A stretch of 64,000 nt of DNA, from contig JAPOWQ010000006.1 in the NCBI GenBank assembly GCA_026707585.1, forward strand, positions 174,411 to 238,410. The letters run 5' to 3'. Both the position numbers and the translations under genes were made by a program. The notes under the pieces are model-generated. The model saw only the letters and a list, made by a program, of their open reading frames with translations, was not told where the DNA came from and did no database searches. The stretch comes from Chloroflexota bacterium (GTDB lineage: Bacteria; Chloroflexota; UBA11872). Below are positions 8,579 to 56,149 of this stretch, piece after piece (position 1 is the stretch's first letter; each line of letters starts with the position of its first letter).

Positions 8579-10324
8579 ATGACGCACAGAATCCCGGCCG
8601 GGGCTCGCCTTCTTGCCGGCTACATGTTCAAGCGCTGGCGGATGTACGCGCTGCTGTGGGCGATCTCCACGGCCGGCGTGGCCGTGCAGACGGCAGTTCC
8701 GTTCCTGGTCCGCGCCCTGCTGGACGACGCGCTGCCTACCCGGGAAATCGGACTTGTCGTGGTCCTGGTGCTGGCCATCGGCTGCGCCCACGGCTTCCAT
8801 CGTTTCACCGTCATCGCGAACCGGATTGGCCGGGAGCGCGGACTGGTGCGCACGAACCAGGATCTGCGCACCGACATCTTTGCCCGGACGATTCGCCGCG
8901 ATGGGCGCTTTTTCGACCGGCAGACCAGCGGGGAGTTGACCGACCGTCTGATTCGAGATACGCAGGCGGCGAGTCACTGGGCTCAGCACCTGGTCATGAA
9001 GGGGTTCCTGGGGTCGATCGAGCTTGCCGGTCCCCTGATTGCGGCCTTTCTGCTGAACTGGCGGATGGCGGCGGCGATGCTGGCGCTGGCGCCGGTCCTG
9101 CTGGTGATCCGGCGCTTCATCACGCCGCGCGAACAGGCCGCGCTGCAAACGGAGCGACAGCTCTCCGGCGCCGTCCGCTCGTTCGCGCAGGAGGCCATCG
9201 CGGGCCGCCGATTTATCCGCGCCTCGCAGACCCAAGAGCATGCCCGGGGGCGCCTGCGCGAACTGAACGAGCGGCTGTTGACCGAGGGCTCGTATCGGGT
9301 CACGACGCTGGCGAGCTACCAGCACAACATGTGGATGACGGCGCGCGGAATCGGCCTCCTGCTGGTATTTGCCGTGGGTATCGCCGAAACCGCCAGTGGC
9401 CGCACCACGCCGGGCACGCTGGCCGCCTTTGTGCTGACGGCCATGCACTTCTACTCGGCGCTGGGGTTCATGCTGGACTTCTATACGATGCTGCACCGGC
9501 TGCTGGCGCCGTGGCGGCGGGTGGCGCCGCTGTTGGAGGATCCGCCGGATGCGCCGGCCGGTCGCCAGCCAGTCCGCTCGGGCGCTCCGGGTGTGGTCTT
9601 CAGCAGCGTGTCTTTCGCCTACACCGACGACCGTGAGGCGCCGCTGCGCGATGTGAGCTTTGAAGTGGACCCGGGCGAATTCCTGGCCGTCGTCGGCGCC
9701 ACAGGATCCGGCAAGACCACGATTGCCGATTTGCTGATGCGCTTCTACACGCCGCAGTCGGGCACGGTCGCCGTGAACGGCCTGGACGTCTCGGACTTGC
9801 CGGCGCACGAGCTCCGGCGCGTGGTCGGCATCGTGCCGCAGGACACGGCGCTGCTGAACGAGAGCATCCGGGAGAACCTGCTGATCGCCGCGCCGGACGC
9901 TGACGACCAGACGCTGGCCGAGGCCATGCGCGCCGCCGAGCTTCACGAATTCGCGGCCTCGCTGCCGGACGGCTACGACACGGTGATCGGCGACCGCGGC
10001 GTTCGGCTCAGCGGCGGGCAGCGTCAGCGCCTGGCGATCGCCCGCGTGCTGCTGCAAGACCCGCCGCTGCTGATCCTGGATGAAGCGACGTCCTCGCTGG
10101 ACAGCCTGACCGAGCGGCGCATCCAGGCCGCGCTGGATCGGGCCAGCCAGGGTCGCACCGTCATTGCCATCGCCCACCGGCTGGCGACCATCATCAATGC
10201 CGACCGGGTGCTGGTGCTGGACGGCGGCCGCATCGTCGATCAAGGAACCGTCCGCGAACTTCGAGAGCGAGACGGGCTATTCCGCGCGATGTACGACACG
10301 CAGTTCGCGGCGGCGGGGGCCTAG
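8579..10324 (+). CDS. ABC transporter, fused permease/ATP-binding protein (type I exporter half-transporter)
   Basis: Six TM helices then Walker A 'GATGSGKTT', signature 'LSGGQRQRLAIAR', Walker B 'LLILDEATSSLD' and H-loop 'IAHRL'. Confidence 0.85.
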   Translation: MTHRIPAGARLLAGYMFKRWRMYALLWAISTAGVAVQTAVPFLVRALLDDALPTREIGLVVVLVLAIGCAHGFHRFTVIANRIGRERGLVRTNQDLRTDIFARTIRRDGRFFDRQTSGELTDRLIRDTQAASHWAQHLVMKGFLGSIELAGPLIAAFLLNWRMAAAMLALAPVLLVIRRFITPREQAALQTERQLSGAVRSFAQEAIAGRRFIRASQTQEHARGRLRELNERLLTEGSYRVTTLASYQHNMWMTARGIGLLLVFAVGIAETASGRTTPGTLAAFVLTAMHFYSALGFMLDFYTMLHRLLAPWRRVAPLLEDPPDAPAGRQPVRSGAPGVVFSSVSFAYTDDREAPLRDVSFEVDPGEFLAVVGATGSGKTTIADLLMRFYTPQSGTVAVNGLDVSDLPAHELRRVVGIVPQDTALLNESIRENLLIAAPDADDQTLAEAMRAAELHEFAASLPDGYDTVIGDRGVRLSGGQRQRLAIARVLLQDPPLLILDEATSSLDSLTERRIQAALDRASQGRTVIAIAHRLATIINADRVLVLDGGRIVDQGTVRELRERDGLFRAMYDTQFAAAGA

Positions 10325-10325
10325 C

Positions 10326-12092
10326 GTGGCCGGCAAGAACTCGGCCGAAGCTGGCGGCTGGCGCGAACTGCGGCAGGCAATAGGCGCCGCACCGCCAACG
10401 CGTACGACGATTGCCATTACGGTGCTGCTCGCGTCGTTGACGATTGCACTTGCAGTTGCCGGCGCCCTGGCAATGCGCGATCTCGTGAACGAGGGCGTGT
10501 ACGCAGGTTTCCCAGACGCGCTCGGAGCGCTGGTCCTGACCGCGGCCGGCCCCACGCTGGCGGTAGGGACCGGCTGGGTGCTGGTCGCGCGCGCGGAACG
10601 CCTGGGCTTCCGAGCCAGCGCACGGCTGACAGAGAGGGTCTTCGCGCACGTCCAGCGGGTGCGGATGGATGTGCTGGACGGCATGCGCTCCGGTGAACTG
10701 ACCGCGCGGGTCATCGACGATCCGAGCGAACTGGCCTGGCAGGCACGCTGGGGCGCCGGCGCCGGCGTGTTCGCCCTGGCGTTTGGGCTGGCGACGGTCA
10801 TAACTGGCGCCATCATCAACTGGCGCCTGCTGGGGCTTGTGGTGATCGTTACGCCGCTCTACTTCGTGCTGACCCGGCGGTTCGGCTATGGCCTGCGCCG
10901 CCTGGCCGCCTACGACCGGCTGGTCTCGCAGGCCGACCTGGCGGCCTTCGCCCAGGAGCGTTTAGGCGCCGCCCGCCTGGTGCAGGCGAGCCGGGCCGAG
11001 GACCGCGAGGCGGGACGGTTCTCGGACCTGGCGGAGCGGCTGAGCCGCGACCACCTGCGCGAGTTCCTGGCCGGCCGTACCTCGGGCGACGTCGGCATTG
11101 CGCTCGCCTGGCTGACGGCGCCGATCCTGGTGTTCGGCCTGGGCAGCATTGAATACCTCAACGGGCGGCTGACGACGGGGGATATCACCGCGCTGATCAG
11201 CCTGCTGCTGGCTCTGGTCAAGATCAGCATGGTGGCCAGCGTCTATTGGTTTGAGTTGGCGCCTATCTTCGCCGCGTCGCGCCGGCTCAACGAGACGCTG
11301 AGCCTGCCGACTGAGGATGAGACCGAGTCGGAACATCGCGACCTGGCGCGTCCGCCCGCGGTGGAATTTGACGGCGTCGCATTCCGTCACCGCTCGACCG
11401 ATGTGCAGCCGCTGGCTGACTTCAGTCTCGAAGCGGAGGCTGGACAGGTCACCGCTCTGGTTGGGGAAAGCGGCTCGGGCAAGTCAACCGCGGCGGAGTT
11501 GCTCGCCAGGTTCTTCGATGTCGACGCGGGCCAGATCGAACTTGATGGTGGTCCGATTCAGTCGCTGAGCCGCGCCAGGGTTCGGCGGTCGATGGCGCTG
11601 GTTGCGCAGGATCCGTCTTTCTTCAGCGCGAGCATCCGAGAGAACCTGACGTTCGGGCTCGCCGACGTCGACGATCGCGACCTCGAGCGGGTGTGCCGGA
11701 TCGCGCGGATTCACGACTTCATCCAGTCGCTGCCCGAGGGTTACGACACGGAGATTGGCGAGCGGGCCTCGCACCTCTCCGGCGGCGAGCGCCAGCGCCT
11801 GGCGATCGCTCGTGCGCTACTGACCGATCCGGACGTCCTGATCCTGGACGAGGCGACCTCCGCCCTGGACTCGGTGACCGAGCGCGAGGTCTACGACGGC
11901 GTGCTGGCCGACTCGGACAGCCGCACGGTGCTGGTTATCGCCCACCGCCTGTCCACCGTGCGCAACGCCGACCGCATCTTCGTTCTCGAAGCCGGTCGGA
12001 TTGCGGAAGCCGGAACGCACGACCAACTCATGGCAGCCGACGGCCCCTATCAACGACTCTACGCCGCCCAGGCTACGCCTGGAGGGGCCTAG
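10326..12092 (+). CDS. ABC transporter, fused permease/ATP-binding protein (second half of a heterodimeric exporter)
   Basis: In-frame GTG at 10326 directly after the upstream stop. Walker A 'GESGSGKST', 'LSGGERQRLAIARAL', 'VLILDEATSALD' and 'IAHRL'. Adjacent and co-directional with the first ABC gene. Confidence 0.8.
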   Translation: MAGKNSAEAGGWRELRQAIGAAPPTRTTIAITVLLASLTIALAVAGALAMRDLVNEGVYAGFPDALGALVLTAAGPTLAVGTGWVLVARAERLGFRASARLTERVFAHVQRVRMDVLDGMRSGELTARVIDDPSELAWQARWGAGAGVFALAFGLATVITGAIINWRLLGLVVIVTPLYFVLTRRFGYGLRRLAAYDRLVSQADLAAFAQERLGAARLVQASRAEDREAGRFSDLAERLSRDHLREFLAGRTSGDVGIALAWLTAPILVFGLGSIEYLNGRLTTGDITALISLLLALVKISMVASVYWFELAPIFAASRRLNETLSLPTEDETESEHRDLARPPAVEFDGVAFRHRSTDVQPLADFSLEAEAGQVTALVGESGSGKSTAAELLARFFDVDAGQIELDGGPIQSLSRARVRRSMALVAQDPSFFSASIRENLTFGLADVDDRDLERVCRIARIHDFIQSLPEGYDTEIGERASHLSGGERQRLAIARALLTDPDVLILDEATSALDSVTEREVYDGVLADSDSRTVLVIAHRLSTVRNADRIFVLEAGRIAEAGTHDQLMAADGPYQRLYAAQATPGGA

Positions 12093-51237: not shown

Positions 51238-51477
51238 ATGGAGGCTATGACCGCCGACAGCGGGCCGCTAACACTGGAAGATCTGCGGCGCGAACTGCGC
51301 GACGAGCGGAGCGAATTGCGCCGCGAATTCGATCGGACCTTGCAGCACTACGCGACAAGGGCCGATCTGGCGAATCTCAAGGCCGAGATGGTTAAGTGGT
51401 TTGCCGGCGTGCTGGTTCTCATCCTGATCAATGTGATCGGTACGCTGGTGACCCTCGTTGTGGCGTTGGGGGCATGA
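51238..51477 (+). CDS. Small hypothetical protein (79 aa) with C-terminal TM helix
   Basis: GGAGTGGGGATGG RBS-like sequence. A charged coiled-coil-like N-terminus precedes a C-terminal hydrophobic helix (tail-anchored topology). Confidence 0.35.
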
Positions 51478-51697
51478 CTGACCGCAGCCTGGCCATTTGA
51501 ACGAGACGGCATTCCGCATTGTCGAGGCCGCGGCGGCCTAGGGCATGAAGTATCCGTGCCAGGACTGACCCGAGCCGTTTTTCCCGAACGGACGCCCATC
51601 TACGTTGCCCACTATCTGTTGCCGGGGGCTTCCCCAATCCTTGAGCTTGTCCCGAAACTCACGGACGTCGAGAGGAACACGCTCACCCCTCAGCCGC

Positions 51698-53047
51698 TTA
51701 CTCGAGCATTCCTCTACTTGCCCACTCCAGAATCTCATCGGACGTTGCCCTCTCGCGGGCAACCTCCTTGTCCATCCCGGGAAAGGGCGAGGTTGGCCGC
51801 AGATCCTCGTCTTTGGGAAGGGGCGAATCCTGGGCACCCTGTAGAGCGCGCAAGAGCGCGACGAGCCGGACGAAGGCGTTGTGAACGGCATTGTGGAGTC
51901 CTGCCAGATACACAACATCAATCCTGGGCAGTTCCGCAGTGGGAAACTGCCCGTTAGAGAGAGGGGCTAGAGCCGAGATCACACGTGTTGGCCCCTCTTC
52001 CAAATCGCTGGCATTCGACTGCATCTTCTGGAGGGCACGCTGGGCGTGGTCTACTGCACGCTGCAGATCAGTCGCCACGGTGGTGCGCGACTTCGCATCG
52101 TAGCGACGAAAAACCCCGATTCGGGACGCCTCATCCAGGCGAGGGAAATCGACTGCACCGTACGCACGCGCCACCATTGAGAACGACGCAATTCGATTTG
52201 CCACGCCGCTATCGGCCAGAGTTACTGAGCCCATCTGATCAGCGTCTAGATTGACCAGTGGTCCAAATAGATCATCTGCGACTCTGTGGCGGATATCTGG
52301 AAATCTAATCTCCTGGTTCAACAGCGCTTCTGGAATCGGACCACCCACCGTTTCCTCGATGCGCTTGCGTTTTCCGGGCACCGTGTCGACGCCTTCCTGA
52401 AGTCTCAGAGTGCGCACTCCGACGAACTTCTGAAGGATCTCTGCGAGTTCTTCCCGGATTAGGTCTCGCTGTCGGGCTTCCCTGACGGTTCCAGTTATCC
52501 CGAGTGCGCTATCGATCTCGGTCGCAATATCAGCGAATTCCTTGAAGCAGTGTAGCCAATTGTCGGCCGGAGGATCATTCTTTCCCTCGCGAGAGGCATT
52601 CGTCTCGGCAACACGCTCCACCTTGTCGATGAAGGCTCGGGTGTGCCCAAAGTCCTGGTATTTGAGCTCTGGATTGCAGCGCCTGATGTCACCGGCAACC
52701 TCGTCACGAACGAAGAACAGTAGCTTTGGACGTCCAGTTTTCCTACGCGATTGGTAGGCGACGTCGTATTCAGCCTCGGTGATGCTACGCTTCGGTTCTT
52801 CGCTGATGAGAGACCCCCGGCGGATCCCGATGAGCAGAACATAGAGATCGGCCCGGTGAATCGCTTCAAAGCAAGCGTCGTAGGTTCCGGGTCCGAGGAT
52901 CTTTTCGGACCCACTGAATTCGCTCATGAACCGGCGATAGCCCAGAGAGTCGAGCCAGAATCGAAGCGCCGAGCGGAGGTCTCGAAAGTCCTCTACCGTC
53001 GAACTCACAAAGACGAGGGGGGCTGACGAGTCGCCAGTGCTTGCCAT
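51698..53047 (-). CDS. Hypothetical protein with a DUF4062-like N-terminal domain (TIR/SLOG-like fold, as often fused to STAND NTPases/effectors) plus ~340 aa of unknown sequence
   Basis: N-terminus 'PLVFVSSTVEDFRDLRSALRFWLDSLGYRRFMSEF' fits the DUF4062 pattern (FISST..DL..ER...). The rest has no recognisable motif. GC is roughly 55% by eye against a ~70% background. Confidence 0.55.
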   Translation of the reverse strand: MASTGDSSAPLVFVSSTVEDFRDLRSALRFWLDSLGYRRFMSEFSGSEKILGPGTYDACFEAIHRADLYVLLIGIRRGSLISEEPKRSITEAEYDVAYQSRRKTGRPKLLFFVRDEVAGDIRRCNPELKYQDFGHTRAFIDKVERVAETNASREGKNDPPADNWLHCFKEFADIATEIDSALGITGTVREARQRDLIREELAEILQKFVGVRTLRLQEGVDTVPGKRKRIEETVGGPIPEALLNQEIRFPDIRHRVADDLFGPLVNLDADQMGSVTLADSGVANRIASFSMVARAYGAVDFPRLDEASRIGVFRRYDAKSRTTVATDLQRAVDHAQRALQKMQSNASDLEEGPTRVISALAPLSNGQFPTAELPRIDVVYLAGLHNAVHNAFVRLVALLRALQGAQDSPLPKDEDLRPTSPFPGMDKEVARERATSDEILEWASRGMLE

Positions 53048-53328
53048 CGCATCTCACCAGGCCGCGTGCAGGTGTCACAGGCTACCGATCGGACGCCCAA
53101 GCATTTCAAACCAACCAGCCGTCCGTATGTCCTTTGTGAGAGTTTCGGTTCGGCCAGTCCAGCACCCGTTGAACGTAGGGCCCATCCGCTCTCCGCTTGC
53201 CCACCGCGACTTGGATGCCCGTGACAGAGTTCGTGAACTCTTGCTCGCTTCCGCAATGTCGCGCTCAGCGTCATTGGCATCGACGCGAGGTGGCTTGGGG
53301 TACTCTGCGGTGACTTCGGTTTCCTAGC

Positions 53329-53583
53329 GTGGCTGCCGTGAGTAAGTACCAACCACTGCGCCGGTTCCTGGCAGACCGCCGCGAGGGTAAGTGGCGGGCA
53401 ACATTCGCCGACGTCGAGGATGTCCTTGGACTCACGCTGTGCACTTCGGCCCGTAAGCATCGGGCATGGTGGGCGAACAGCACCAGCCATCCTGAGGCAC
53501 GTTCCGGCTGGCTGGCAGCAGGGTGGGAGACCAGGAATGTCGACATGGGCAGGGAACGCCTCGTGTTCCTGCGGCAGCGATGA
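53329..53583 (+). CDS. Small hypothetical protein (84 aa) with 'KHRAWWAN...HPEARSGWLAAGWE' motif, translationally coupled (ATGA) to the downstream methyltransferase
   Basis: Its stop TGA overlaps the MTase ATG (cgATGAcc at 53580-53583). The motif resembles small proteins often encoded next to DNA methyltransferases, from memory only. Lower GC. Confidence 0.5.
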   Translation: MAAVSKYQPLRRFLADRREGKWRATFADVEDVLGLTLCTSARKHRAWWANSTSHPEARSGWLAAGWETRNVDMGRERLVFLRQR

Positions 53584-55028
53584 CCGCCGAGGGCCAGCCC
53601 AACTTCGCCAACAAGACGCTTTGGACGGCGGACAACCTCAACATTCTTCGGGGCATAAACTCGGCCTGCGTGGATCTGATCTACCTCGACCCGCCGTTCA
53701 ATTCCAACCGCACCTACGAGGCGCCGGTGGGATCACAGGCAGCCGGCGCGGCCTTCAAAGACGCCTGGACCCTCTCGGACCTAGACGTGGCTTGGATGGG
53801 CCTGATCGCCGACGAGCAACCGGGCATGTACGCGGTGATCGAGGCCGCGGGCCGAGCCCACGGGAAGGGCATGCAGTCCTATCTCTGCATGATTGCGGTG
53901 CGCTTGCTTGAAATGCACCGCGTTCTTAAAGAGACCGGAAGCGTCTATCTCCATTGCGACCCGACTGCCGGACACTATTTGAAATCTATCATGGATGCGA
54001 TTTTCGATCCTGACTCGTTCAGGAGCGAGATTATCTGGAAGCGTTCCAGTGCGCATAGCGACGCGCGACAAGGTCGGAGATAACACGGACGAATACACGA
54101 CATTCTTCTCTTTTACACCAAATCAGATCGTTGGACATGGAATATGATTCATACACCGTATGATCAAGACTATATCGACCGATTCTATCGTTACATCGAG
54201 CCTGGGACGGGGAGACGATATCGCCTTGGCGACCTGACTGGTCCAGGTGGAGCGTCAAAAGGCAATCCGCAATACGAAGTTATGGGCGTAACTCGGTATT
54301 GGCGGTACAGCGAAAAGCGAATGGCCGAGCTAATTGCCGAAGGTCGAGTCGTGCAGTCAAAGCCAGGTGCGGTTCCAGCATACAAAAGATATCTCGATGA
54401 AATGCCAGGTGTGCCTTTGCAGGACATTTGGACCGATATCCGGCCTATTGGTTCGCGCGCGAAGGAGCGTGTAGGTTATCCGACCCAAAAGCCCCTCGCT
54501 TTGCTCGATCGAATCATCAAGGCTTCCAGCAACGAAGGCGATCTGGTGCTCGATCCCTTTTGCGGTTGCGCCACGGCGTGCGTGGCCGCTGAGCTTCTCG
54601 AACGCCGATGGGCGGGAATCGACATTTCGCCGAAAGCAGTGCAACTCGTAAACCATCGTCTGCAGGAAGCGCCGCCATTGGGCATCGGTCCAATGTTTCA
54701 TCACGGCTACGTCACCGTTCGCACAGACATTCCACGGCGGACGGACATCGATGCACCTGGACCCTACCGGAAGCGCGTCCACGAGCTGTTTGGGAAACAG
54801 GAAGGCCGCTGCAACGGCTGCCAGGTTGACTTCCCCTTCCGCATGTTTGAGGTCGACCACATCGTTCCGCGGTCACGCGGTGGCACAGACCACCTTGAGA
54901 ACCTGCAATTGCTCTGCTCGCACTGCAACCGCATCAAGGGTGACCGCGAACAGGCCTACCTGGTCAGCCGCCTAGTCGAGCAAGGCACGCTCAAGCGCGA
55001 CGGTCGCCGTCTCAAGCCGTTTGCATGA
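53580..55028 (+). pseudogene. Beta-class N6-adenine/N4-cytosine DNA methyltransferase (DNA methylase N-4/N-6 family; motif IV 'DPPF' precedes motif I 'DPFCGCATAC') fused to a C-terminal HNH endonuclease; reading frame interrupted by a single in-frame TAA at 54081-54083
   Basis: 'VDLIYLDPPFNSNRTYE' is the catalytic motif IV. 'EIIWKRSSAHSDARQGRR*HGRIHDILLFYTKSD' continues in the same frame across the TAA. 'GDLVLDPFCGCATACVAAELLERRWAGIDIS' is the AdoMet motif I. 'CNGCQ...VDHIVPRSRGGTDHLENLQLLCSHCNRIKGD' is an HNH. Tracks 53523..54083 and 54144..55028 share one frame. Confidence 0.7.
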
Positions 55029-55391
55029 AGTTCGTGCACGGGGGCCGACGGACACCAAGAAAGTCCGGCGGCAGCGGTTCATCTCCGCGGGCGAGTAGCG
55101 CCCCTCAGGGAATCAATCCGTCTGGTTCAGCGACCCGCAGCCGCGCTTCAACACCAAGGCGTCGACAATCTGCCCCTAGGTTGCATGGCTCTCGGCGTAG
55201 GCTAGCCTGAGTAACCGCGGCGACGAGCCGGTTCTCTGATACTCAGACCGCAAGCTCTTTGGGCTGAGACACATCCCCCATGAGACGACGGCGGGATGAT
55301 GCTGTCGGCCGATTAGTTTCGAGACGCTGCGCAATGTGAATGCGTGAGGCGCGGGGAGGTTGTCAATCCGCGTCGCTTATGGGAGGCCGTT

Positions 55392-55628
55392 ATGCCACTT
55401 TGGGTAGATGAGGCAGAGAGGCTTGCAGGTGCTGAAGTCTGGGAATTGGTTGGCACCTCGCCAGGACCGTACCAGTGCGACTTGAGTCGCGGTTGGATTC
55501 CGGAGCACTCGCGCGCTGTGCGTATTCGCGGCAGGCAGTCTGGTACGCGGCTTGTCGTTGGACAAGGCGTCGCGCGCAAATATTTCGGCGTTCGGCTGAA
55601 TCGCGCGGGCGAGCTTATTGACCACTAG
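55392..55628 (+). CDS. Small hypothetical protein (78 aa) at the right edge of the low-GC island
   Basis: ATG 'MPLWVDEAERLAGAEVWELVGTSPGPYQCDL...'. Lower GC and no recognisable domain, so coding status is uncertain. Confidence 0.3.
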   Translation: MPLWVDEAERLAGAEVWELVGTSPGPYQCDLSRGWIPEHSRAVRIRGRQSGTRLVVGQGVARKYFGVRLNRAGELIDH

Positions 55629-55708
55629 CGACCTTTGGTGTTGCGGCGGGGTGGCGGGCTTTTCTAAGCTTTGGGCCAGTCCCGAAAGTCACGGATCGCC
55701 GCTACCGC

Positions 55709-56149
55709 ATGTCCCGAGTCCGTCTGCATGCCCCGCGCCTGGCCGCGCTGGTTGCCGCCGCCGTGATACTGGCCGGCTGTGAGGTCGGCGCGATGCAGAC
55801 GGCTATCGATAACCCGACGCCGGATCCGGCGACGGCACTGCCGACCACCTGCACACCGCCGAGTTGCGAGGAGCTGGCGGTGCAGATTGGGGACTTCGCG
55901 ATCCTGCCGCCGGTGATTCGGACGAGCGCACCGCGCGTGCGGTTCGCAATTACCAACATCGGCGCGTACACGCACAGCCTGGAGATCCGACTGCCAGGCG
56001 GCGTGGTCAACTCGCCGCGGATCGGGCCAGGACAGACCGGGTACCTGGAAGCGGACCTGGAACCGGGCACGTATGAAGCGCTGGATCCGACGCCGGGCCA
56101 CGCGGTGCGCGGCGCGCGGGCCAGCATCGTGGCGGGGTCCGGGAGCTAG
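55709..56149 (+). CDS. Cupredoxin-fold-like lipoprotein (apparently lacking the Cu-ligand Cys)
   Basis: Signal and lipobox 'LAALVAAAVILAGCEV'. 'FAITNIGAYTHSLEI...PGQTGYLEADLEPGTYEALDPTPGHAVRGARASIVAG' follows the cupredoxin H...C..PGH..M layout but has A where the Cys should be. Confidence 0.5.
   Translation: MSRVRLHAPRLAALVAAAVILAGCEVGAMQTAIDNPTPDPATALPTTCTPPSCEELAVQIGDFAILPPVIRTSAPRVRFAITNIGAYTHSLEIRLPGGVVNSPRIGPGQTGYLEADLEPGTYEALDPTPGHAVRGARASIVAGSGS

Follow-up and report, generated by a model that had tools for sequence, protein, structure and literature searches.

A chromosomal islet in a Chloroflexota bacterium pairs a candidate DUF4062 defence gene with a separable DUF7662 and methyltransferase–HNH operon

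Introduction

A Chloroflexota chromosome carries an islet of ~4 kb (51.6–55.7 kb of the 64-kb window, by which we mean the whole stretch of DNA analysed), bordered on one side by rpoD with a small TM gene and on the other by the caa3 oxidase cluster. It encodes a 449-aa DUF4062 protein, an 84-aa DUF7662 protein, a 482-codon fusion of a methyltransferase (MTase) to an HNH nuclease that is interrupted by a TAA, and a 78-aa ORF (Table 1). We asked whether these genes form one defence system, how they came to this site and when. Our preferred reading, which we think likely, is that two separable modules, together with some hitch-hiking debris, make up a chromosomal defence islet whose insertion dates from an ancestor of the present Chloroflexota lineage.

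Table 1. Features of the islet and its edges, in window coordinates.
Feature	Coordinates	Strand	Remarks
D1 left copy, imperfect 40-nt direct repeat	51626..51665	.	just outside islet
449-aa ORF	51698-53047	-	Pfam DUF4062 at aa 12-97, E 1.3e-14
AUX half, aa 206-449, putative sensor region	51698..52432	-	hypervariable, mosaic
N-terminal DUF4062 (NIR / TIR-like NADase) domain and conserved linker	52433..53047	-	putative catalytic Glu93 codon 52769-52771
Divergent intergenic region, DUF4062 gene versus DUF7662/MTase-HNH operon	53048..53328	.	from gene coordinates
84-aa DUF7662 protein, GTG start	53329..53583	+	Pfam DUF7662 E 3.7e-17
Beta-class N6/N4 MTase with C-terminal zinc-finger HNH, 482 codons	53580..55028	+	Pfam N6_N4_Mtase E 3.9e-37; HNH E 1.8e-14
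Inner features of MTase-HNH	DPPF from 53688; motif I 54546-54587; HNH 54810-54947; TAA 54081-54083	+	TAA is codon 168
Degraded BNR_2 (Asp-box beta-propeller) 3' end relic, aa 375-463	55036..55296	+	tblastn with L010 BNR_2
78-aa ORF	ATG 55392..55628	+	conserved in three relatives
D1 right copy, 40-nt	55656..55695	.	within upstream region of 146-aa cupredoxin-like gene

Composition, Origin and Age of the Islet

The stretch is compositionally foreign and inserted. Along the window, GC runs at 0.50–0.62 over 51400–55600 against 0.65–0.72 on either side; it is 0.589 for 51480–55650 and 0.677 for the remainder. GC3 is 0.60–0.75 in the islet genes against 0.82–0.93 in groEL, rpoD, ctaG, cox3, cox4 and the 146-aa gene, and the contrast is repeated in every relative examined. 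Both measures agree with the initial annotation, made by eye, in placing an abrupt change between rpoD plus the small TM gene and the caa3 cluster. The drop itself stands, but the values need correction: the background is ~68% rather than ~70%, and the islet is ~59% overall. The direct repeats that were to be sought at the islet ends are there, as the imperfect 40-nt D1 pair. Its copies agree at 31/40 positions; in shuffled flanking zones the best match averaged 20.5 and peaked at 25 (300 shuffles). In one relative, L001, the orthologous 146-aa gene likewise has a D1-related copy (28/40) in front of it.

The right end of the islet holds debris. By tblastn, the BNR_2 relic is 47% identical over 89 aa (E 3.6e-16) to an intact BNR_2 protein at locus L010, and it contains in-frame stops. 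An intact BNR_2 gene adjoins the MTase-HNH gene at L010, L011, L083 and L084. Because the relic travelled along, the previous genomic context of the islet was this GH42/BNR_2 context. The 78-aa ORF, which has no Pfam or NCBIfam match, is real: it is open and 74–81% identical in three relatives (L001–L003), where a stop closely precedes the ATG, and its substitutions are richest at third codon positions (8, 8, 17; 8, 13, 19; 8, 12, 19). In L083 the intact BNR_2 gene is followed by a homologue at 59% identity. The 78-aa ORF is probably a hitch-hiker, outside both defence modules.

The GC3 contrast in all relatives, the flanking D1 and the relic and 78-aa ORF from another context together argue for insertion. 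That there is no island, only native ORFs whose composition dips through gene-specific constraint or by chance, is scarcely credible. Synteny of the islet in several relatives and purifying selection on its genes would suit such a reading, but it runs against the low GC3 in every genome examined, the same cassette in a second, unrelated context, a pseudogene relic of that other context inside the islet, and a D1 repeat that exceeds all shuffles.

The islet occupies an identical rpoD/caa3 site in four genomes, the window and L001–L003, and the dS of the MTase-HNH gene (0.5–0.9) is about that of the housekeeping genes (0.4–0.7). Since the same site is occupied in relatives at that housekeeping dS, the islet is old and not recently acquired. 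The proposed horizontal acquisition thus holds as to foreign origin and insertion, and fails as to recent arrival.

The DUF4062 Protein

The leftward gene is a single-gene abortive-infection candidate in which an auxiliary (AUX) domain comes after a DUF4062 domain of the NIR / TIR-like NADase type. The DUF4062-type, TIR-like N-terminus that had been read from the sequence is confirmed by the Pfam match and by alignment of E93 with the catalytic E97 of KpSwz (PDB 10wc). Glu93 is invariant in 51/51 family members compared, and F13, E93-Y94 and W164 are the counterparts of Eva01 motifs F11, E87-Y88 and W162.

The AUX half has no match in Pfam, PADLOC or PDB. A phmmer search with it against 1.8e9 representatives gave 59 matches, ~55 of which are proteins with the architecture of the query protein and are 25–35% identical; the family amounts to ~59 clusters at the 50% identity level, from several phyla. 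In the orthologue alignment, identity falls sharply at ~aa 200, from 76–98% in the N-terminal half to 40–65% in AUX, where the blocks are mosaic. The AUX dN/dS of 0.16–0.33 is higher than that of the N-terminal half, and its dS is 1.5–2.3 between the window allele and L001–L003 versus 0.3–0.7 among L001–L003 themselves. The identity drop, mosaic blocks, higher dN/dS and excess synonymous divergence make AUX a putative sensor. A model of the full-length protein is only moderate (pLDDT 71). Around 34 distant loci of the AUX family, the neighbouring genes include those of Type III and Type I restriction-modification (R-M), MADS, Lamassu LmuB, PLD and HNH.

We infer both the NADase activity and the nature of its trigger: the variable C-terminal AUX would sense a phage-derived signal, the protein would then oligomerise, and the N-terminal domain would hydrolyse NAD+ via Glu93, halting the infected cell.

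The DUF7662 and MTase–HNH Operon

The order of its motifs, with IV (DPPF) ahead of I (DPFCGCATA), places the methylase in the beta class. With the Pfam matches, this bears out the initial annotation of a beta-class amino-methyltransferase fused to an HNH nuclease, and the HNH looks intact. Intact 482-aa orthologues are 91–94% identical to the window protein. Among 118 family members, DPPF, DPFCGCATA, the two CxxC pairs and the D-H/N motifs show no variation or almost none, and dN/dS is 0.04–0.05. The family has >120 clusters at 71–79% identity, single among housekeeping genes at differing places; in five different housekeeping contexts the gene is solitary, with no conserved partner, the pattern expected of a self-contained enzyme. 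PADLOC 2023 returned only generic MTase matches on the islet. The family is very large, strongly constrained, usually solitary and apparently uncharacterised.

The 84-aa protein directly upstream had been noted for a conserved-looking WWAN/GWLAAGW motif, which turns out to be the invariant core of DUF7662 (W48, N50, W61, G65). Its predicted fold is a winged helix. As first described, its TGA overlaps the MTase-HNH start (ATGA, 53580-53583). In the divergent intergenic region, 53105-53293 had no blastn match in relatives, indicating poor conservation, and a search of the whole region for a sigma-70 consensus promoter found none. Full-text literature searches returned nothing on DUF7662 or under naming variants of the MTase-HNH fusion.

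We propose that the rightward module couples DUF7662 translationally to a one-polypeptide enzyme resembling R-M: the MTase domain would recognise and methylate host sites, the zinc-finger HNH would nick or cut unmodified DNA, and DUF7662 would act as a DNA-binding operon regulator in a role analogous to that of a C protein. That the HNH domain performs restriction is our conjecture. An epigenetic or repair role in housekeeping would also account for the very strong conservation and for the solitary settings among housekeeping genes.

The gene might then be an orphan epigenetic or repair methylase, its HNH for example nicking for repair, or a selfish homing-like gene, with the DUF4062 gene a mere neighbour. 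Such a role draws on the housekeeping-like dN/dS, on the single occurrences among housekeeping genes, which suit either a conserved role in the cell or a selfish gene that moves, and on the MTase moiety, whose nearest relatives are stand-alone phage/plasmid methylases and CcrM/MboIIA/DpnA-type enzymes. We nevertheless consider it unlikely: low GC3 in all hosts examined speaks against an old core gene, the distribution is patchy with differing insertion sites, one homologue adjoins a STAND NTPase, and a single nonsense mutation is tolerated in the window genome.

We give still less credit to a toxin–antitoxin-like addiction pair in which DUF7662 neutralises or represses an HNH toxin and the TAA marks an escape. 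Its model is locus L004, where a 128-aa DUF7662 protein directly precedes a PIN-domain protein with a 4-nt overlap, the classic antitoxin–toxin layout, and the islet has the same ATGA coupling. The 84-aa form, however, lacks the C-terminal ~55 aa by which the PIN-associated forms are longer, the part that in antitoxins would bind the toxin, and DUF7662 is also found alone or after recA. Most MTase-HNH family members have no upstream DUF7662, so the nuclease would be independent of it.

At the codon of the TAA, relatives carry CAA or CAG (Gln), and constraint downstream is not relaxed. The stop is best read as a single recent CAA-to-TAA transition, and it could also be a MAG consensus error. 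The suggestion of a recently inactivated, possibly toxic system is supported as to inactivation; the data give no sign of toxicity. In our favoured reading, this change would have just inactivated the rightward module here, both activities being lost together, with the DUF4062 module intact.

Separability of the Modules

Judged from gene content across loci, the islet genes are not an obligate single system, contrary to the initial grouping of the three genes as one module. In the GH42/BNR_2 context, L083 and L084 carry DUF7662 and MTase-HNH at 93.5% identity to the window but no DUF4062 gene, which L010 and L011 have at that same place; the L083 locus is otherwise near-identical. Nor do distant DUF4062 homologues recur beside MTase-HNH genes, a point that was to be checked: the 34 distant DUF4062-AUX loci lack the islet partners, at least 27 of them having no adjacent MTase, and five other MTase-HNH loci have neither DUF4062 nor DUF7662.

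The divergent layout is nevertheless kept both at rpoD/caa3 (window, L001–L003) and in GH42/BNR_2 (L010, L011), and a shared move of three genes between two contexts makes some functional coupling possible. In a fully integrated system the MTase would mark host DNA, the DUF4062-AUX NADase would respond to something produced from the mark, for instance methylated mononucleotides from the phage-degraded host genome, as in Metis and its predicted MTase-containing 'type III', or HNH-made DNA ends, and DUF7662 would regulate. In two Bacillota MAGs, members of the same AUX family do lie between the Type III genes mod, whose product is likewise a beta-class MTase, and res. There is precedent in m6dAMP-activated NAD+-degrading effectors with predicted methylase-encoding variants (10.1101/2025.11.05.686725), and Vesta VstA is a proposed sensor of a degradation product (10.64898/2026.09.04.749371). 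We hold such a system to be improbable given the partnerless loci above, L083/L084 keeping their pair under the same constraint. Moreover, the window MTase is knocked out with the NADase gene still intact, and published DUF4062+AUX proteins act as single genes. The two Chloroflexota contexts count as one event because both descend from one cassette.

Comparison with Known Systems

The remark that no named defence system matches has been overtaken by 2026 preprints (Swarozyc, Evangelion, NIR/Vulcan), which describe DUF4062 as a TIR-like NADase defence effector and have the architecture of DUF4062 plus auxiliary region. Single DUF4062+AUX genes defend via NAD+ depletion (10.64898/2026.05.01.722283; 10.64898/2026.06.25.731849; 10.64898/2026.09.04.749371). 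Swarozyc KpSwz is a DUF4062 TIR-like NADase activated by phage portal (10.64898/2026.05.01.722283; PDB 10wc, 11cq, 11cv). Like it, the 449-aa protein is one polypeptide with an N-terminal DUF4062 of TIR-like fold, an aligned Glu (E93/E97) and then an auxiliary region. Unlike it, the protein is ~110 aa longer and from another host phylum, and its AUX has no detectable similarity to KpSwz, the profile match covering only aa 12-98 (E 0.04). Evangelion Eva01-04 combine a DUF4062 core with diversified AUX (10.64898/2026.06.25.731849). They share the single gene, the F, E-Y and W motifs, a fast-evolving AUX and halves that appear to co-evolve, but reside on resistance plasmids, whereas ours is chromosomal between Chloroflexota core genes. 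Compared with the NIR-domain systems (10.64898/2026.09.04.749371), the protein lacks the HEAT repeats of Vulcan, and the islet has neither the alkaline-phosphatase partner of Vesta nor the STAND NTPase of Avs2-NIR.

The rightward module resembles Type IIC-like R-M in that a single chain holds both MTase and nuclease and keeps every catalytic motif, and C-protein-controlled R-M operons in its small, translationally coupled upstream protein of DNA-binding-like character. To our knowledge, characterised Type IIC/IIG enzymes pair a PD-(D/E)XK nuclease with a gamma-class MTase. The islet enzyme differs in being a beta-class MTase with a C-terminal HNH, and DUF7662 is winged-helix-like where the C protein is Xre-type. 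In Metis, MisA is an NAD+ diphosphatase, and a methylase-containing 'type III' is predicted (10.1101/2025.11.05.686725). There too an NAD+-destroying effector adjoins a DNA methylase, but the effector family is another, no homology is expected, and coupling in the islet is contradicted by L083. We regard the islet as a new example of already known kinds rather than a new defence system.

The Islet Holds Two Modules

The initial annotation placed a lower-GC islet between rpoD and the caa3 oxidase cluster, and the compositional break is borne out. In 400-nt windows, the GC content is 0.50–0.62 at ~51.4–55.6 kb and 0.65–0.72 around it; taken as a whole, 51480–55650 has a GC content of 0.589 and the remaining window 0.677. 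Third-position GC (GC3) is 0.60–0.75 in the islet genes and 0.89–0.93 in groEL, rpoD, ctaG, cox3 and cox4, with the 146-aa gene on the right flank at 0.82. The low GC3 of the islet is kept in every relative examined. The four ORFs (449-aa, 84-aa, the methyltransferase (MTase)–HNH frame and 78-aa) are as first described, and they are listed in the table together with the decayed 3′ end of a BNR_2 gene. Two further ORFs were rejected as genes. The 88-aa ORF at 55313–55579 (minus strand) overlaps orf78 in antisense and shows less third-position bias, and the 61-aa ORF at 55025–55210 sits inside the BNR_2 relic. Scans for tRNAs, Rfam families and promoters/terminators yielded nothing useful on the boundaries or regulation of the island.

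Features of the islet and its junctions, in window coordinates
Feature	Position	Strand	Remarks
Small TM-helix gene	51244–51477		left of islet
D1 direct repeat, left copy	51626–51665		
449-aa ORF	51698–53047	-	Pfam DUF4062 aa 12–97, E 1.3e-14
E93 codon (GAA)	52769–52771		in 449-aa ORF
84-aa ORF	53329–53583	+	Pfam DUF7662, E 3.7e-17
MTase–HNH, 482 codons	53580–55028		entered via ATGA overlap with 84-aa ORF; N6_N4_Mtase E 3.9e-37, HNH E 1.8e-14
DPPF motif	from 53688		in MTase–HNH
Premature TAA	54081–54083		codon 168 of MTase–HNH frame
DPFCGCATA motif	within 54546–54587		in MTase–HNH
BNR_2 relic	55036–55296		last 89 codons, stop-ridden; tblastn E 3.6e-16
orf78	ATG at 55392		78 aa
D1 direct repeat, right copy	55656–55695		
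146-aa gene	55709–56149		lipoprotein-like; adjoins ctaG

The proposal that these genes make up an unrecognised multi-gene system did not survive the analysis. The islet is composed of two separable modules of known kinds and two hitch-hikers, the BNR_2 relic and orf78. The first module, the 449-aa protein, is predicted to represent, within the DUF4062 NADase defence family, a new lineage of auxiliary domain. The second is an uncharacterised but abundant one-polypeptide restriction–modification-like (R-M-like) fusion, accompanied by a protein modelled as a winged helix.

The MTase–HNH Fusion and Its Stop Codon

DPPF lies N-terminal to DPFCGCATA, which is the order of the beta class, and the model match together with this order assigns the methylase to PF01555 (N6A/N4C), beta class. 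The HNH signature, CNGC...VDHIVP...ENLQLLCSHCN, contains the catalytic D-H...N...H/N residues and two CxxC zinc ligand pairs. Across 118 aligned members, DPPF, PTQKP, DPFCGCATA, both CxxC pairs and the D-H, N and H-C-N of the HNH domain are invariant or nearly so, and dN/dS is 0.04–0.05. The family is very large, with at least 8000 matches; the best 120 clusters among them are all fusions, ~433–509 aa and mostly 460–470 aa in length, at 71–91% identity. As a stand-alone protein, the MTase moiety is found in Streptomyces phages and rhizobial plasmids at 53% identity or less, and its nearest solved relatives are MboIIA, CcrM, DpnA, RsrI and N4C methylases. At five other loci, the fusion gene is solitary amid unrelated housekeeping genes, with neither a DUF7662 nor a DUF4062 neighbour. 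The most economical reading is of a self-contained enzyme that would both methylate and cut, and it may be a one-gene restriction–modification enzyme. A full-text literature search, including name variants, found no papers on MTase–HNH fusions. We draw attention to this fusion as very abundant, tightly constrained, apparently unstudied and usually solitary.

At one of these five (L078/L079:6001–11691), a fusion 76% identical is followed 160 nt on by a STAND NTPase of 1366 aa (NPHP3_N/NACHT-like) whose N-terminus is weakly REase-like; this is likely an NLR/Avs-type defence gene. A DUF4062 domain in this neighbour was considered and rejected, as Pfam gave no match for DUF4062.

Codon 168 is CAA or CAG (Gln) in the relatives, and a single C-to-T transition therefore accounts for the stop. 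Synonymous changes exceed nonsynonymous ones by 4–5:1 both before and after it, just as between intact orthologues, and therefore the TAA is not a sign of long-standing decay; the inactivation is very recent or polymorphic, or an assembly error. The stop had been suggested to mark the recent inactivation of a possibly toxic system. The recent stop stands with that proviso, but toxicity need not be invoked, because nuclease and methylase share one chain and a nonsense mutation abolishes both.

The DUF7662 Protein

The WWAN...GWLAAGW motif that had been singled out in the 84-aa protein is the invariant core of the DUF7662 family, which is its sole Pfam match; there is no match to HTH_3. The structure model is winged-helix-like. 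This short form is without the C-terminal extension of the PIN-linked DUF7662 proteins of 128–140 aa. A profile search of PDB sequences returned only VopV, which was rejected as spurious, and no papers on DUF7662 were found in a full-text literature search.

The commonest form of the family is ~130–140 aa long with a conserved C-terminal 'DLT.P' tail. At L004:6001–6797, the gene for a 128-aa DUF7662 protein runs 4 nt into that of a 137-aa PIN-domain protein, and the two form an unannotated toxin–antitoxin-like pair. At L005:4951–6282, recA is followed after 13 nt by a 93-aa DUF7662 gene, at the usual site of recX, and a BrxR/WYL regulator is encoded just upstream. We flag DUF7662 as a small domain, winged-helix-like, whose partner is either a PIN toxin or the MTase–HNH fusion.

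The Predicted Effector Half of the DUF4062 Protein

Three preprints of 2026 establish DUF4062 as a TIR-like NADase, the effector of single-gene abortive infection, with an auxiliary region needed for sensing in each case (10.64898/2026.05.01.722283, 10.64898/2026.06.25.731849, 10.64898/2026.09.04.749371). Swarozyc is activated by the phage portal and has the catalytic residue E97 (10.64898/2026.05.01.722283); the motifs of Evangelion are F11, E87-Y88 and W162 (10.64898/2026.06.25.731849); and the family, under the name NIR, has been taken to include Vulcan, Vesta and Avs2 (10.64898/2026.09.04.749371). The catalytic Glu in published members is E97 in KpSwz, E87 in Eva01, E98 in Vulcan and E108 in PsAvs2.

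The 449-aa protein scores 54.6 bits with the DUF4062 model (PF13271), whose curated cut-off is 24.7, and the domain is of the TIR-like/nucleoside 2-deoxyribosyltransferase-like fold. F13, E93-Y94 and W164 are all present. E93 aligns with the position mutated in the deposited KpSwz chain (E97A, PDB 10wc). Among 51 family sequences, E93 is invariant and Y94 and W164 are nearly so; F13 is nearly invariant in a 12-sequence alignment. [quoted passage not shown] That these NADases are immune effectors has been known only since 2026. The members tested so far are, to our knowledge, proteobacterial and staphylococcal only.

The Auxiliary Half and Its Family

The C-terminal 240–340 residues have no relative in Pfam, PADLOC or the PDB. 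They do have a family of their own. With phmmer, 59 clusters sharing this auxiliary half (AUX) were found among 1.8 billion representatives, most at 25–35% identity, in proteins of 400–530 aa with the same layout as the 449-aa protein. A genome scan located ~34 AUX-family loci outside the orthologous group. The spread is patchy, taking in Chloroflexota, Bacillota, Myxococcota and other deltaproteobacteria, Planctomycetota, Acidobacteriota, Latescibacterota and Pandoraea.

Between orthologues, identity is 76–98% to about aa 200 and then drops abruptly to 40–65% with mosaic blocks. The dN/dS is 0.06–0.13 in the effector half and 0.16–0.33 in AUX. The dS of AUX is 1.5–2.3 between the window allele and those of three relatives (L001–L003) and 0.3–0.7 among the latter. 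The drop in identity, the mosaic blocks and the excess dS point to a replacement of the putative sensor half by recombination.

At the 34 distant loci, the two genes closest to the AUX-family gene on either side include Type III R-M, Type I MTases, MADS mad2/mad3, LmuB, PLD and HNH genes, along with many housekeeping genes, and none recurs as a partner. Such neighbourhoods agree with what has been published, namely a stand-alone defence gene with a tendency to reside in defence islands. In two Bacillota MAGs (L027:7041–14365 and L037:6899–13453), the AUX-family gene is inserted between Type III mod and res, on the same strand and with its ends overlapping both.

We take the 449-aa protein to define a distinct auxiliary-domain lineage of ~59 clusters. 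It is a good test case for sensor diversification, with a very clear effector/sensor boundary and natural gain and loss between sister genomes.

Placement and Origin of the Islet

In L001–L003, the gene order is the caa3 cluster, the 146-aa gene, an intact 482-aa MTase–HNH, DUF7662, the DUF4062 protein, rpoD and groEL. Identity to the window is 91–98% for the housekeeping proteins, 91–94% for MTase–HNH and 68–71% for the DUF4062 protein. The dS of MTase–HNH (0.5–0.9) is much like the values for rpoD, ctaG and the 146-aa gene (0.4–0.9), so the islet was already there when the window genome and those of L001–L003 diverged, and it is not a recent arrival at the rpoD/caa3 site.

A genome scan with the 12-sequence family alignment and one further look-up revealed a second context. 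L010 (chromosome OZ253558.1) and L011 carry, in order, GH42, the DUF4062 gene, DUF7662–MTase–HNH, a 146-aa ORF and BNR_2, with neither rpoD nor caa3 near the cassette. Two more loci, L083 and L084, share this context (GH42 95% and BNR_2 94% identical to L010) and have an MTase–HNH 93.5% identical to that of the window. These two are without the DUF4062 gene, and the gap between GH42 and DUF7662 is only 211 bp; the gain or loss of this gene is thus independent of the genes around it.

In L083, an orf78 homologue directly follows the intact BNR_2 gene. Together with the BNR_2 relic, this shows that the islet was transplanted from a locus of the GH42/BNR_2 type. The segment DUF4062–DUF7662–MTase–HNH–BNR_2–orf78 moved from there into the rpoD/caa3 site, where BNR_2 then decayed. 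The imperfect 40-nt direct repeat D1 has its copies no more than 35 nt from the ends of the transplanted DNA; they agree at 31/40 positions, and 300 shuffles gave 25 at most. The right copy corresponds to the conserved stretch that precedes the 146-aa gene. D1 is consistent with a target duplication. A search for the empty insertion site in metagenome contigs with the 146-aa flanking protein did not find one and returned one irrelevant locus.

The small TM-helix gene has its only detectable homologue among the relatives in L002 (53% identity, reverse-complement coordinates 10216–10416). There, it is to the right of the islet, adjoining the 146-aa gene, whereas the window copy is on the left; L001 has an unrelated 55-aa ORF in the left position. 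The islet junctions have evidently been reshuffled among relatives. The 146-aa gene of the window, 81–89% conserved in relatives, has a weak EfeO/cupredoxin-like match (NCBIfam E 2.6e-4) and probably encodes a caa3-associated copper protein. The 146-aa ORF at L010:6643–7083 has no family match and overlaps the MTase–HNH stop by 4 nt; it is absent from the window and L083, which makes it another optional cassette gene. A few hundred bp from BNR_2 in the same chromosome (~0.67 GC), L010:2592–4631 has ORFs of 146 and 471 aa with GC 0.48–0.60 and GC3 of ~0.47–0.48. Neither has a Pfam match, and the 471-aa ORF has none in PADLOC. This looks like a second foreign insert beside the cassette, much more AT-rich.

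Are the Modules Coupled?

The movement of the cassette as a unit and its conservation in two genomic contexts invite a coupled reading, as does the embedding of the same AUX family within Type III R-M operons. The adjacent beta-class methylase would mark host DNA, and AUX would sense phage attack through a freed methylated mononucleotide or through DNA damage made by the HNH nuclease. If so, this would be a Metis-like (10.1101/2025.11.05.686725) 'own-methylase' alarm for genome degradation on a TIR-like effector, and both the two-context conservation and the Type III placements would be functional rather than incidental. Two independent cases of a methylase beside an AUX-family gene were counted. 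Against it, L083 and L084 are natural loci without the DUF4062 gene, and recurrence of the DUF4062 family beside MTase–HNH genes outside the cassette itself was not seen, either at the five other MTase–HNH loci or, as a shared partner, at the 34 distant AUX loci. We consider coupling very improbable and favour two separable modules. As such, the findings extend the catalogues and give clean experimental candidates, leaving concepts unchanged.

Comparison with Known Systems

The DUF7662 protein differs from an R-M C protein, which is of the Xre-type HTH_3 kind, ~80 aa, encoded upstream of the nuclease gene and accompanied by C-boxes, in being of a different family and, as modelled, winged-helix-like. 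It also differs from the antitoxins of Type II (VapBC-like) toxin–antitoxin pairs, small proteins encoded upstream of a PIN or other toxin, which have a toxin-binding C-terminal tail. The second module as a functional R-M system, which would cut unmodified DNA and be blocked by its cognate methylation, is putative, and the window gene bears a premature stop.

The DUF4062 protein is not a Swarozyc in the strict sense. The auxiliary domain of KpSwz consists of a stalk and a portal-binding region with no counterpart in AUX by sequence; a profile of 18 orthologues searched against PDB chains matched KpSwz only at aa 12–98 (E 0.04) and left AUX unmatched. Vulcan has C-terminal HEAT repeats, whereas Pfam gives neither HEAT nor any other repeat here and the AF2 model of AUX is mixed alpha/beta with no solenoid. 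Vesta is an operon of a small NIR protein and an alkaline phosphatase; the window locus has no phosphatase, and the neighbours are DUF7662 and MTase–HNH. The architecture is that of Evangelion, a single gene with a DUF4062 core, an auxiliary half and the F, E-Y and W motifs, but Evangelion is associated with plasmids and mobile genetic elements, and the window copy is chromosomal.
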